This document shows positions 1-6,000 of a stretch of DNA of 64,000 nt, piece after piece (within the stretch, counting starts at the first letter, position 1; each line of letters starts with the position of its first letter). Source of the stretch: Escherichia coli (GTDB lineage: Bacteria; Pseudomonadota; Gammaproteobacteria; Enterobacterales; Enterobacteriaceae); NCBI RefSeq assembly GCF_048403405.1, contig NZ_CP183131.1; one strand, given 5' to 3'. A program made the position numbers.

Positions 1-3000
1 TGCAAGGTATCCTCCTGAGGGAAATGTGTCAGGAAGAAATCTATGACCCTTGACGGCGTATGTCAATCAATTCGGAAGGCAACTCTATTCTGACGATTTA
101 GCGCCGGATGGTCTGACGCCAAGTTAGGGTATAGCCTAGATTGACATGCGCGATGCAACCCTTAACTTGCTTGCACCTATCGTTTCCATGCTAGCTTTAT
201 CGTAACGCTCAAGAAATTGGGCTTAATGCCGAAAACAATAAAATAAAACAGCCAACCCTTGAGGTTCTTATGCGCCAGAATTTACCAGTGACGGGTCGAA
301 ACTTAGAACTCCCAAAAGATGCCAATATTCTTTCGACTACCTCCCCTCAAAGCCATATCACGTACGTTAATCCTGACTTCATTAAAATCAGTGGTTTCAC
401 TGAGGAAGAACTATTAGGCCAGCCTCACAACATCGTAAGACACCCAGATATGCCGCCTGCTGCATTTGAGCATATGTGGAGTACATTAAAATCTGGCCGC
501 TCATGGATGGGGCTAGTAAAAAATCGCTGTAAAAATGGCGACCACTATTGGGTAAGTGCTTATGTAACGCCAATAGCTAAGAATGGTTCGATTGTTGAAT
601 ACCAGTCTGTAAGGACCAAGCCTGAACCTGAGCAGGTTTTGGCTGCGGAAAAATTATATGCTCAATTGAGAAGCGGGAAGGCCGCGAGGCCGAAATTGGC
701 TGCTAGCTTTTCCGTGAAAATACTCTTGCTCATATGGGGTAGTATTATATCAAGCGCAATGGCTGCCGGCATGCTTACTGATACATCAATAAGCAGCTTA
801 TTGTTACCAGGAATCAACGCCTTTACCCGCTGCCGGAGCCTCACCTCAATAGCACTCTCCGGCAGCCGTATTGTTACAGCGAATCAAACTGATAGCTGAC
901 CGATAGCCCAACGCCATAGTTACGGCCCGGCGCCGGTTCATAATAGCGTCCGTTGCTCTCGTTGACGATAACAGAGCCGACGTAGCGCTTATCAAACAGG
1001 TTATCAACGCGCGTATAGAGGTCGACGGTCCAGTTATCTAGCACATATTTATAGCCGGTATTCAGTGCCGTCACCGTATAGGCTGGAGCCTGCTCGCTAT
1101 TGGCATCGTTGACCTGAATATCGCTCATATAGCGGACTTCAGCGCCAGCGTACCATCCCTCTTCCGGCACCCAGCCAAAGGAGGCATAGGCGCTATTACG
1201 TGCAATCCCCGGGATCCGATTGCCGCTCTGAATAGCATCGCCGGCGTTTTCACGGTAGGTCGCATCCAGCAGCGTCCACGCCAGTTTGGCGCGCCAGGCG
1301 GGCGCAAATTGCTGATCCCATCCCAGTTCGACCCCGCGGCGGCGCGTCTTGCCCGCGTTCTGATAGGACGTACGGCCATTGTCGCTGGCGGCAACGACAA
1401 TTTCATTTTTCGTGTCCGTATTGAAGACGCTCAGGCTCGCCATCCCGGTGCCCACCTGCCATTTACTGCCTGCTTCAACGGTGGTGTTAGTGGCCGGTTG
1501 CAGAGCAAAGTTAAGCCCGGACTGACCATCGGGACGATAGGACAGCTCGTTAATGGTCGGCGTTTCAAATCCCCTCCCGGCAGAGAGGTAAACGTTCCAC
1601 TGCGGCGTCATGGCATACTTCAGCGCTGCCGCCGGAAGCCACTTGTGATAGCTCGCTTCGCCGCTATCATCACCATTTTTACCTACAACATAACGATCGT
1701 TGGAATCAAACCATACCGAGCTATAGCGCGCCCCGGCGTCCAGCCCCAGGGCTGAGGTGAGCTGCCAGTGCGTTTGAATGTAGGGATCGAGGTTCCACAT
1801 CAGGTTACGTTCGTTACGTCGCATATCACCTTTGGTGCCGAGATCGTAAACGCCGTTCTGATAAACAAAGTTCTCATAGCCTTTGCGCTGTTCGGTCATC
1901 GCCTCGTAATCAAGGCCGGTGGTGATGGCGTAAGGGATAAAACCGCTGTCATCGTGGTGTGTCCAGCGCGTGGCTTTGTTGAATAAATCAGATTTCGGGT
2001 AAGTCTCCCCCGTAGCGGGTTGTGTTTTCAGGCAATACGCACGCTTTCAGGCATACCTGCTTTCGTCATTTTGTTCAGCGCTCGTACCAGGGCCATAGCC
2101 TCCGCAACCTGACCATCGTAGTCACGCAGCGTCAGTGAACCCCCGAACAGCTGTTTTACCCGGTACATCGCCGTTTCCGCTATCGAGCGACGGTTGTAAT
2201 CTGTTGTCCATTTCCACCGCGCATTACTCCCGGTCATTCGCTGATTAGCCACTGCACGGTTACGGTCTGCATATTCACCGGGCCAGTAACCCGCACCTTT
2301 TCGGGGCGGGATAAGCGCGCTGATTTTCTTACGCCGCAGTTCATCGTGACAGAGCCGGGTATCGTAAGCTCCATCGGCGGCGGCTGACCTGATTTTCCGG
2401 TGGGTTTGCCGGATTAACCCGGGGAAGGCCTCTGAGTCCGTAACGTTGTTCAGCGACAGGTCAGCGCAGATGATTTCATGTGTTTTACTGTCAACTGCCA
2501 GATGCAGCTTACGCCATATACGACGGCGTTCCTGGCCATGCTTTTTGACTTTCCACTCGCCTTCACCGAAGACCTTCAGCCCGGTGGAATCAATTACCAG
2601 GTGTGCGATTTCACCCCGGGTGGGCGTTTTGAAACTGATATTAACCGACTTTGCCCGCCTGCTGACACAGCTGTAATCCGGGCAGCGTAGCGGAACGTTC
2701 ATCAGAGAAAAAATGGAATCAATAAAGCCCTGCGCAGCGCGCAGGGTCAGCCTGAATACGCGTTTAATGACCAGCACAGTCGTGATGGCAAGGTCAGAAT
2801 AGCGCTGAGGTCTGCCTCGTGAAGAAGGTGTTGCTGACTCATACCAGGCCTGAATAGCTTCATCATCCAGCCAGAAAGTTATGGAGCCACGGTTGATGAG
2901 GGCTTTATTGTAGGTGGGCCAGTTGGTGATTTTGAACTTTTGCTTTGCCACGGAACGGTCTGCGTTGTCGGGAAGATACGTGATCTGATCCTTCAACTCA

Positions 3001-6000
3001 GCAAAAGTTCGATTTATTCAACAAAACCTTTTTCTGGTTTCAGTACGCGAGATACGACAAATCTTCTGTCTTTTTCCCATTTAACTAATTTTGTATACAG
3101 TTCTGTAGTTTCTCTACCTTCTTCTCCTTTAACGAATACAATTGATGAATTCGTTGCTTGTGAGGTGAGTGTAGAATAACTTTTGGCTTTAATTAAATAT
3201 TTGCATCCAAGAGATTCTATCGTTTCGATAATTTTTTCATCAAAGTAGCCACTATCCATTCGAAATAAAATTTCTAAATCGTCTGATTTGATGTTAGCAA
3301 CAATTTCTTTGATCATTTCCGCAGCACCGTTTGCAGTGTAAGTATTGCCACTTCTTACAAATCCGGTAACATATGCTTTTAATTCGTCGCAAAATGCAAA
3401 TTGGATATTGTAGCATCGGTTTCCCAGTTTCTTAGGATTATATCCTTTTGACGCACCTTCTTGATGACCTTCTACGTTAATTACACTACTATCAATATCA
3501 ATCGTAATGGATGTCAATTTACTTTTAGTGAGCAGTTTTTTAAAGACTTTAAAATTAATGTCTCTAAACATTTGGGTTGTCTTGAAGTTGAAGTTTCCTA
3601 GAAACCGTGACACTGTTTCAGGTTCTTTTACGGAAATATCAAACTCGTTGACGAGGGGATCATTTTGAAGTAGCTTTAGACGTTCTAACTTATCAATGCC
3701 AATGAAGTGACCGCAGAGCATGGTCTTTATATGATTCATCTTGATTTTATTTGTTGAGTCATTATCAAATACGAGGTCATTTTCAATAAAATCAAAAATC
3801 CCATTGCTTTTTGCATTCTCAAGGAGCAGAAAAAGACCTGCATTTGATGTTAGATTCTTAGCTTTGAAATCAATTTTATTAATCATAATTAGAACCCCTT
3901 TTTACTACTTTTCTTACTATTATTTTACCATATATCGAGTCATAAAAGCTGATAATTTAACATATTTTTGAGCACTTTTCTTTCACCCAATGGGTGAAAG
4001 CTGAATTTCGAAGGAATGCATATTTATCAAGGCTTTGATTATGCTTTTTGAAGTACTGACGTAGAATCTAGGTGTTAGCCACTTTAATGTCAGGAAGCTT
4101 AAGCTCTGTTAGTGTTTTGGCTATTCTCTCTCCTCTTGGAAGACTGGTTGAAAGAGCCAGGAATATTTCCAATAACCCATTAAGTCAATCCCTCTACACT
4201 GGGCGCACCGATGAGTTTGGCCAAATAGAGTTTGCTTTACGAATGATGCAAGCTGAAACAGGCGCCATAGTAGGTCGCATAGGTGATGCATCAAATCGGC
4301 TTAGCGAACACACCCGAGGCCTACTAAAGGATATTGAGTCAAGCAATGTACTTACAGTTGAGCAGCAGGCAGAGACAGATCAAATAGCAACGGCAGTAAA
4401 CCAAATGGTGGCAAGCATTCAAGAGGTTGCGAGCAATGCACAGCATGCTGCAGATGCGGCCGGAAGAGCAGACACTGAGACGGCATCTGGCCAGCGTCTG
4501 GTAGCCCACACAAGCCAGTCAATCACTGCCCTTGAAGGTGAAATTAGGCAAGCCACTCAGGTTATTCATGAGCTTGAAGGTCAAAGTAACGAGATATCAA
4601 AAGTTCTTGACGTTATACGAGGGATCGCCGAGCAAACGAATTTGTTGGCACTCAACGCAGCAATTGAGGCCGCGCGTGCTGGTGAGCAGGGGCGTGGTTT
4701 TGCTGTTGTCGCCGATGAGGTTCGCAGTCTTGCTGCTCGCACACAGCAATCGACAACGGATATTCAAAGCATGATCAGCGCTCTACAAGAGCGAGCGCAA
4801 TCCGCTGTTACAGTCATGGAGCAAAGTAGTCGGCAAGCGCACACGAGTGTAGCTCACGCAGAGGAAGCAGCTACAGCTCTTGATGGAATTGGCCAACGCG
4901 TTAACGAAATTACCGACATGAACGCGCAAATAGCGACTGCGGTCGAGCAGCAGGGAGCAGTAAGTGAAGACATAAACCGCAGTATTATCAATATACGCGA
5001 TGCTGCTGATACCAATGTACAGACCGGGCAGAATAATTTGCAAAGTGCGAAATCTGTCGCTCAGTTAACTAGCGCTCTGAGCGAACTGGCAAAACAGTTT
5101 TGGGAAAAACGAGGATAACGCTTTTCAGTATCTCGACAGGGATAACTTACTTTACCATCGGTTATCCCTTTTAGCCGCACAAATTTTAGCCATGGCTTTT
5201 CAGGAAGTCAGGGCTATCAGAATGGCCTTAGAAAGCCTAGTCAAAGAGCTGTCACGAGAACACCGTTAGCTTAGCGTACGATTTTTTCCGAATTCTGCGG
5301 TTCCCCCTCCAGGGAAGGATTCGATAGTGACTCCACCGAAGGTGCCAAGGATTTCCGATGCCGCTTTATCAGATCGAGTTTTGCGTTGTTCTGAGGCGTC
5401 AAAGTTACGAAGCAATTTGAGCTGAACATCCTTATCCTGGAGCACGATCAGGGGCATTGGCGCGGTAACGGTTTTGAGTACCCCTGCGGCCATGACGTTT
5501 GCCACCGGTTGAACCTTTACTTCCCTTCGCTCCCGGAGATAAGGCTCCGGGGTGCTGGCGATCTTCTGGATAAGCTGCTCCAGGGGAAGTTGATAGTCTG
5601 GCCCAGATCGCTCCAGCTCCTCTCTGATGCGTTGCAAAAGCTCCTCTTTTACGGGCTTCTTCAAGGAGTCCTTCCGTTGCCAGGTGAAGCGGATAGAGTC
5701 GATGTCGCCATTGGTATAGCACCGAATTTGTCTGTAAAGGTGGAGAGTCATGACACCAGGGCAGTCCGCTCGAAGTGCTTCAAACCTCTCTTGCCTGGTG
5801 GGGTACGTCGAGATAATGAACTCCTCGATACCAGCTTTGGCCGCGTTGATGCGTTCAACCGTCGCCGCAATTTCGTCAGCTACACCAATCCTGGAAGGGG
5901 AGAACCAGAGTACCCCCACGGTGCGCCTGGCAGACTTCTGCGAATAGTCTGGGTTGATGTGAAGATCTCTGTAGCTGTGCGCTGCCAGCTCAAGAGCTTC

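Follow-up and report, generated by a model that had tools for sequence, protein, structure and literature searches.

At the start of a 64,000-nt stretch of Escherichia coli DNA (contig NZ_CP183131.1 of RefSeq assembly GCF_048403405.1; the window, hereafter), a gene with the layout of an aerotaxis receptor is interrupted by mobile DNA. The interruption lies between two open reading frames on the plus strand: 270-899, which has a PAS-type start and whose residues are unrelated to the chemoreceptor beyond codon 179, and 4072-5118, which is its HAMP/MCP C-terminal part. Three pieces separate the two halves, all of them on the minus strand: a fragment of a TonB-dependent receptor, an insertion sequence (IS) of the IS903 type and a transposase fragment of 33% GC. 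The insert is a single ISEcp1 transposition unit of the Tn6503 type (ISEcp1-blaCTX-M-14-IS903B-ΔiroN), now defective, and the gene that it splits is the passenger gene mcp of the transposon Tn1722. The locus comprises the following features.

270-806, plus strand: 5′ part of mcp (orfI), codons 1-179, with the PAS domain and the start of the membrane segment
802-806: first copy of the target-site duplication TGTTA, which is single in the joined sequence
807-820, minus strand: alternative right end CCAGGAATCAACGC, the outer boundary of the unit, matching CCTAGATTCTACGT at 9 of 14 positions
874-1971, minus strand: 3′ fragment of a TonB-dependent receptor gene, C-terminal 365 aa (profile positions 312-676 of 676)
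1972-3028, minus strand: intact IS903B, 1057 bp, with terminal inverted repeats and a transposase open reading frame at 2028-2996
3028..3029: deletion junction, where the IS903B terminus is fused to ISEcp1 nt 1044 with a 1-nt ambiguity; the 40 nt across it are GATTTATTCAACAAAACC followed by TTTTTCTGGTTTCAGTACGCGA
3029-4072, minus strand: truncated ISEcp1, nt 1-1044 of 1656, with tnpA codons 1-286 at 3029-3886 and non-coding DNA from there to 4072
3980-4000: perfect 21-bp palindrome CTTTCACCCAATGGGTGAAAG, ISEcp1 nt 73-93, 72 nt inside the left end
4059-4072, minus strand: ISEcp1 left inverted repeat CCTAGATTCTACGT, with no difference from the left end of the ISEcp1 in plasmid pIMP69_000369 (L001), which is complete (1656 bp)
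4073-4077: second copy of TGTTA, abutting the ISEcp1 left repeat
4078-5118, plus strand: 3′ part of mcp, codons 180-525, with the HAMP and MCP signalling domains, annotated in pPM64421a as a HAMP domain-containing MCP

When 270-806 is joined to 4078-5118 the result is an open frame of 525 aa, in which Pfam places PAS_3 at residues 31-114, HAMP at 194-239 and MCPsignal at 325-486. The top match of the joined protein in the PDB is an 'Aerotaxis receptor' over its full length (E 2.8e-65), and the Aer PAS domain is matched at E 9e-41; no equivalog model of NCBIfam was reached, the top one being CtpM with 267 bits against a cut-off of 900. The gene thus has the PAS-HAMP-MCP layout of E. coli Aer and clear homology to the solved Aer chains, but unlike Aer it is transposon-borne, disrupted and without an NCBIfam equivalog match. 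In pKP96 (IncN), pKP-14-2-131-NDM-1 and pPM64421a (IncC) mcp adjoins a resolvase and a transposase annotated as TnAs1/Tn1722 type, and the gene in the window is this Tn1722/Tn1721 passenger (mcp/orfI), not a host chemotaxis gene. A first reading made from the sequence alone (the sequence-only reading) had described an aer-like gene split by mobile DNA. The split is confirmed, since the halves rejoin in frame and uninterrupted copies exist in plasmids. The term 'aer-like' is fair for the domain layout and the top match to Aer, with any FAD binding or aerotaxis function putative; it does not hold in the sense of a gene of the host.

The insert itself occupies 807-4072 (3266 bp) and is accompanied by one 5-bp duplicate. 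A 444-nt query from which 807-4077 had been removed was found uninterrupted in plasmids, in 1,499 records that cover at least 80% of it in one place, and nearly all of these matches (more than 1,400 plasmids) have an identity of at least 99%. Given these uninterrupted copies and the TGTTA on both sides of the insert, the insertion was precise and made a 5-bp duplication. One end of the block is the true left repeat of ISEcp1. The other, CCAGGAATCAACGC, resembles that repeat at 9 of 14 positions and is accepted as the right end mainly on the strength of the duplication and the empty site, which settle where the boundary lies; the same junction at 807 is found in pKP96, in IncC and in other plasmids, and the 67 bp past the stop codon of the TonB-receptor fragment (807-873) also belong to the unit. 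The sequence-only reading had described a 3.2-kb composite of mobile DNA; that its three pieces are independent debris is contradicted by the one left repeat, one repeat-like end and one TGTTA duplication around the whole.

The low-GC transposase remnant that was noted at first sight is indeed present (3029-4072, 33% GC), though neither its identity as ISEcp1 nor that of the lost segment, blaCTX-M-14, had been recognised. Its DNA agrees in full with nt 1-1044 of the complete ISEcp1 in pIMP69_000369, and its 286 transposase residues cover the IS1380 model over its N-terminal 295 positions; P0002 matches it at 100% identity. Measured against a complete ISEcp1, with its 420-aa transposase and authentic right repeat, only nt 1-1044 and codons 1-286 remain, and this copy is dead, unable to move by itself with a truncated transposase and without the authentic right repeat. 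The same insertion is known as Tn1722::Tn6503 (Tn6558, in the IncC type 2 plasmid p397108-Ct2) and occurs also in pKP96 (blaCTX-M-24), SJ46 (blaCTX-M-27) and pIMP69_000369. A related context, Tn1721-ISEcp1B-blaCTX-M-19-IS903D, was reportedly first described by Poirel in 2003. In the phage-plasmid SJ46 it is the mcp gene of Tn1721 that ISEcp1-blaCTX-M-27-IS903D-iroN interrupts, as in pKP96 (PMC5241659). ISEcp1 takes downstream DNA along by way of a misrecognised repeat-like sequence (PMC9330008), and the ISEcp1/ISPme1 'transposable modules' of the IS1380 family, formed by one-ended capture of downstream DNA, have in common with the window that the left repeat is a true one and the right end downstream and degenerate, that 5 bp are duplicated and that the cargo lies 3′ of the IS (PMC9330008), the difference being that the copy in the window is no longer self-mobile.

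The window differs from its relatives by a deletion. Plasmid records that cover at least 80% of 270-5118 number 123 and are of several incompatibility types; the top ones are 100% identical apart from 1,532 bp of additional DNA, in which blaCTX-M-14, -24 or -27 and the rest of ISEcp1 are found. By pairwise BLAST the missing segment is L001 8760-10291, with endpoints at 8759/8760 (last IS903B base) and 10291/10292, and it is made up of 2 bp, the 876 bp of blaCTX-M-14, a spacer of 42 bp and 612 bp from the end of ISEcp1, which include the right repeat and, with 405 nt, the 3′ end of tnpA (its last 134 codons out of 420). No blaCTX-M-9-group gene is present between ISEcp1 and IS903B: a search of the whole window with the deleted 1,532-bp segment of L001 gave no match at any position. 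An endpoint that falls on the last base of IS903B, with a 1-nt ambiguity, points to a junction made by a transposase and not to a random deletion. Tn6558-type loci and the window thus agree in the insertion point in mcp, the TGTTA, the alternative right end, the junction of IS903B with the TonB-receptor fragment and the neighbouring IncC ter/tus-like gene, and they differ in that the window has a hybrid res side and has lost the 1,532 bp, which in the others hold the bla gene, the right repeat of ISEcp1 and a third of tnpA at its 3′ end. As a consequence blaCTX-M-14 and the promoter borne by ISEcp1 are gone, mcp is still disrupted and IS903B is intact.

A second plasmid has lost blaCTX-M-14 from the same locus. 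In NZ_CP023724 (L005; Klebsiella pneumoniae TVGHCRE225, IncC) the deletion starts at the same IS903B end as in the window and ends 58 bp inside a second, inverted IS903B, of which a stub remains at L005 7130-7187. Backbone, Tn1722::Tn6503 site, loss of blaCTX-M-14 and start of the deletion are common to the two plasmids, but L005 keeps 64 more bp of ISEcp1 together with the IS903B stub, and its deletion is independent of that in the window. A second, inverted IS903B with a 9-bp duplication is also present within ISEcp1 in pPM64421a (L004 12236-13292), NZ_CP028996 and others, 64 bp from the position of the window junction in plasmids of the pPM64421a type. IS903B is recurrently active at the Tn1722::Tn6503 locus. 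Plasmids with two IS903B copies, of the L004 type, were considered as parents of the window and rejected, their second copy being inverted and 64 bp away from the window junction.

IS903B was expected to show a 9-bp duplication and does not. The element is whole: its transposase scores 357 bits with the IS5-family model (cut-off 140), and 330-3028 is 100% identical to L005 DNA with an annotated IS903B. Its 9-bp flanks in the window are ccagcgcgt and tttttctgg. In the intact unit they are likewise unrelated (ccagcgcgt and agttacagc), and the junction of IS903B with the TonB-receptor fragment is identical in all Tn6503 copies, so that this junction is older than the deletion in the window; it is a much older rearrangement, made before the unit entered Tn1722. 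On the other side the loss begins at the last base of IS903B, which explains why no duplication is found there. The missing duplication is thus accounted for by rearrangements at both ends and does not speak against membership in IS903B. The sequence-only reading had correctly described an intact IS903 without a 9-bp duplication between two unrelated broken genes. Its explanation, an IS903-associated deletion or recombination between two copies and not a simple insertion, stands for the ISEcp1 side, while the TonB-receptor side is ancestral. It had also proposed a search for a partner IS903 and the other half of the TonB receptor; the 64-kb window holds no second IS903, no bla gene and no further piece of the receptor, and with an ancestral junction neither partner is to be expected in the replicon.

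The Tn1722 frame of the locus can be followed on both sides.

1-118: res-like region, about 70% similar to the res of Tn1722 in an alignment with pKP96, running off the edge of the window
119-269, plus strand: Tn1722 intergenic region between res and mcp, identical to pKP96 and to the IncC plasmid L001
5270-5307: 38-bp terminal inverted repeat of Tn1722, which pairs with the opposite Tn1722 end in L004

Tn1721 has the order IRL-mcp-res-tnpR-tnpA (PMC10464524); the window starts within res, and tnpR and tnpA are seen in L002-L004. The homology between the window and the non-IncC plasmids pKP96 and L003 ends at 5307. From 5308 onwards the window carries a tus-like terminus-binding ('ter') gene, an exonuclease, an integrase, rhs and transfer genes. 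Over about 8-9 kb from position 3028, pairwise BLAST gives 99.96-99.97% identity to L001 and L004, and 15891-64000 (48 kb) is collinear with pPM64421a at 99.996% identity. Because of this collinear near-identity to plasmids typed as IncC, we assign the window from 5308 to an IncC (A/C2) plasmid backbone. Tn6503 in Tn1722 near ter of IncC type 2 plasmids is Tn6558 (PMC6872532). The idea that the Tn1722 remnant is the edge of the IncC island ARI-A was dropped, since ARI-A is a Tn1696 derivative in orf240, whereas type 2 plasmids have Tn1722::Tn6503 next to ter (PMC6872532).

The anatomy of the locus, the TGTTA duplication, the empty site and exactly how far the deletion extends can be read directly; in what order the events took place, and by which enzymatic route the deletion arose, we infer as follows. 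A transposon of the Tn1722 type would have entered an IncC backbone, adjoining the tus-like ter gene. One ISEcp1-mediated transposition would then have put a 4,798-bp unit into mcp between codons 179 and 180, duplicating TGTTA and using the true ISEcp1 left repeat and a weak look-alike of the right repeat beyond the TonB-receptor fragment; this would be an old event, common to at least 123 plasmids of several incompatibility types. Finally, and in the window only, IS903B would have removed the adjacent 1,532 bp, most likely by an 'adjacent deletion', in which its transposase-proximal end would have been transposed intramolecularly into ISEcp1, leaving IS903B in place and fused to ISEcp1 nt 1044. 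IS903 does make adjacent deletions (PMC12670165, PMC11708052), and in those described for IS903, as for IS26 and IS1, the IS stays, the loss runs to one side from its terminus and no flanking duplication is made, as in the window (PMC12670165, PMC11708052). We consider this three-layer nest (Tn1722 in IncC, the ISEcp1 unit in mcp and the IS903B-associated deletion), since decayed, to be well supported, with a probability of roughly 0.85. Three observations weigh against it. The match of the alternative right end to the left repeat, 9 positions in 14, is weak. The IS903B/ISEcp1 junction was found in no PLSDB record and in none of 5,426 complete E. coli genomes, in which it was matched in two pieces only. 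Last, an adjacent deletion, recombination between two direct copies and a collapsed assembly would be indistinguishable from the sequence alone.

Recombination is a rival route to the same junction. A second, direct IS903B would have inserted at ISEcp1 nt 1044, and homologous recombination would then have excised blaCTX-M-14, the 3′ end of ISEcp1 and one of the two copies; only the product is seen in the window, and the predicted product of such recombination is identical to it. IS903B does insert into this very ISEcp1, as the second copy with its 9-bp duplication 64 bp from the junction shows, and L005 retains the remnant of such a copy. However, the second copy that is known has the opposite orientation and another insertion site and hence cannot be the parent, the required junction or intermediate is in no record of PLSDB or of the complete E. 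coli genomes, and two events are needed where the adjacent deletion needs one. We therefore regard this route as rather unlikely, though it deserves to be kept in mind.

An error of assembly, by which two direct IS903B copies or a mixed population were collapsed and blaCTX-M-14 was deleted in silico, would fit the fact that IS copies are classic points of collapse and that the junction is unique among the public records searched. It would also call for another IS903B at ISEcp1 nt 1044, where none has ever been seen; the remainder runs collinear with a finished IncC plasmid for 48 kb at 99.996% identity, and the finished plasmid L005 has a real, independent deletion of the same type. We think such an artefact very improbable. 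Even harder to believe is that the TonB-receptor fragment, IS903 and the transposase remnant arrived separately in an aerotaxis gene of the host. The GC contents of the three pieces are very different (56, 52.5 and 33%, respectively), but the whole block lies within one left repeat, one repeat-like end and one 5-bp duplication, it is carried as one block by IncN, IncC and other plasmids as well as by a P1-like phage, and the gene belongs to Tn1722 and not to the host chromosome. The three-layer nest with an adjacent deletion by IS903B remains the reading that we prefer.

The fragment of the TonB-dependent receptor is present in the insert as first described (874-1971, minus strand), its 5′ part having been removed at the IS903B end. 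Its best NCBIfam match is PqqU (NF041535, 654 bits), and among species-representative genomes its nearest relatives are in Pseudocitrobacter, with 90-91% identity in amino acids and about 80% in nucleotides. A search of genome contigs for a donor found no source in Kluyvera or Salmonella. The label 'iroN' that the fragment carries is unsupported, the best match being PqqU and the DNA being neither Salmonella iroN nor from Kluyvera.

The perfect 21-bp palindrome at 3980-4000, also correctly reported in the sequence-only reading, stands out in the window, where 6 perfect palindromes with arms of at least 10 bp are observed against 0.3 expected from shuffles. It lies about 50 nt upstream of an extended -10-like box, TGGTAAAAT (nt 143), and tnpA starts (ATG, nt 187) 94 nt past its end. 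It occurs once in ISEcp1, on the left side only, and neither a second copy nor a half-site was found at the right end of ISEcp1. Relatives of ISEcp1 were chosen by protein similarity and comprise 7 contigs, whose transposases are 84-90% identical, and 13 loci on viral contigs, with 74-100% in the parts that match; in these loci (L012, L014-L019 and L045-L052) the motif is located about 95-110 nt upstream of each tnpA start. Its 18-nt core TTTCACCCAWTGGGTGAA, for which 0.13 chance matches with up to 3 mismatches are expected, is invariant in all 12 distinct left ends; the central base alone varies, and compensatory changes are absent. The non-coding DNA around it is heavily diverged in these left ends, with insertions and deletions, and the core is the only invariant block besides the tip of the left repeat. 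The palindrome is a normal, conserved part of ISEcp1 and not a feature of the breakage.

The palindrome folds into a hairpin, and an intrinsic terminator or a known RNA was considered and rejected: no terminator-like site was found on either strand in 3800-4150, with no T-run after the palindrome, the motif is invariant without compensatory changes, and Rfam at gathering thresholds gave no match to it, the only hit being a chance-level one to the glutamine riboswitch (E 0.034). Invariance without compensatory change argues for a DNA site of a dimeric protein and not for an RNA hairpin. We tentatively propose a role in cis for the palindrome: with its dyad symmetry, TTTCACCCAWTGGGTGAAA (ISEcp1 nt 74-92) may serve the ISEcp1 clade (IS1380) as a binding site for a protein, most plausibly the transposase, and may be kept as such in non-autonomous derivatives, instead of being a by-product of sequence; we regard this as somewhat less probable than its negation.

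A scan of environmental metagenome contigs for the motif found at least 120 loci. Among those listed, 29 have an ISEcp1-like tnpA that starts 79-108 nt past the motif and 20 are at contig ends, and about 45 are complete internal palindromes without such a transposase, amid ordinary housekeeping neighbours. Fifteen of the internal loci resolve into elements of about 180-245 bp (most of them 203-217 bp), whose ends, CCTAGGTTGAGCGGTTC... and CCTAAAGTGATCGGTTC..., may be compared with CCTAGATTC... and CCTAAATTC... in ISEcp1 (CCTAGG.../CCTAAA... in the elements). The palindrome, here of 19 nt, is near the centre of these elements, and exactly central, about 105 nt from each end, in the 2 that were measured. 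Perfect 5-bp duplications flank 8 of the 15, namely the following.

L068 4755-4965: small element with a 5-bp duplication
L128 935-1145: the same
L081 1108-1317: the same
L116 1290-1503: the same
L118 3691-3893: the same
L131 385-587: the same
L132 2273-2475: the same
L153 4886-5102: the same

They look like derivatives of the ISEcp1 clade of IS that resemble miniature inverted-repeat transposable elements (MITEs), to judge from their size, ends and duplications, and no Rfam family matches them. The loci were selected by the motif, and the sample is therefore biased and the presence of the palindrome in it circular. Retrieval by the terminal repeat (CGGTTCNNSGTTCANGGTTC, in viral contigs) was tried and brought up unrelated heptad tandem repeats only, with the palindrome in 0 of 68 sites; it failed because the pattern is too low in complexity. 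We found nothing specific on the palindrome or on IS1380 MITEs in the searchable open-access literature, which is weak evidence of novelty.

Several other observations concern the frame and the backbone. The identity to the Tn1722 of pKP96 is complete only from about position 119, and in L001 a tni module of the Tn402 type abuts at the point that matches 118/119 or so of the window; the sequence of 1-118 suggests a hybrid res, formed by resolvase-mediated exchange with a related transposon of the Tn3 family. An IS5-type element at 12034-13228 (1195 bp; ends GGAAGGTGCGAACAAG..., plus-strand transposase at 12102-13082) is flanked by CTAA as a clean duplication of 4 bp and is missing from the otherwise identical backbone of pPM64421a; unlike IS903B, it is a simple insertion. 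Between 22550 and 48120 the IncC backbone contains several families of direct repeats of 25-121 nt, spaced by 1-19 kb (mostly about 4-5 kb). One of them, TAATTTGCTGTTTGTTTTTGGCGACCAGCTATCGCAC, has 7 copies, and another, 121 nt long, is found at 42066 and 46901 with 100% identity. They have the look of regulatory or promoter modules that recur between genes. An inverted repeat of 29 nt, whose arms (6232-6260 and 6437-6465) are 86% complementary, surrounds a purine-rich GA tract at about 6330-6375, a short way downstream of where the tus-like gene starts. The backbone also has a perfect palindrome, ACCGTAATTATCATAATTACGGT, at 10117-10139, and three of the six perfect palindromes of the window, at 19239, 25847 and 59800, are AAAG(G/C)C...G(C/G)CTTT hairpins with a terminator-like look.

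The architecture of Tn1722::Tn6503 on an IncC plasmid has already been described, and the window adds to it a trivial deletion variant: a textbook nesting of IncC plasmid, Tn1722, ISEcp1 unit and IS903B, followed by decay, which matters little as such. For surveillance, a plasmid of this kind would score for the ISEcp1 and IS903 markers even though its extended-spectrum β-lactamase (ESBL) gene is lost, and the fragment called 'iroN' in the CTX-M literature is PqqU-like and should not be counted as a virulence gene. IS903B trims the locus repeatedly from the same end, in the window and in L005, and this is relevant to the use of the CTX-M context in epidemiological tracking. The palindrome and its MITE relatives are the sole part with a wider potential, as a possible handle on the mechanism of transposition of ISEcp1, an element that mobilises the most important ESBL genes. 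If the palindrome is indeed a cis-acting site, it could explain how ISEcp1 has a fixed left end and yet tolerates almost any right end, a tolerance that enables the capture of blaCTX-M, blaCMY and other resistance genes.

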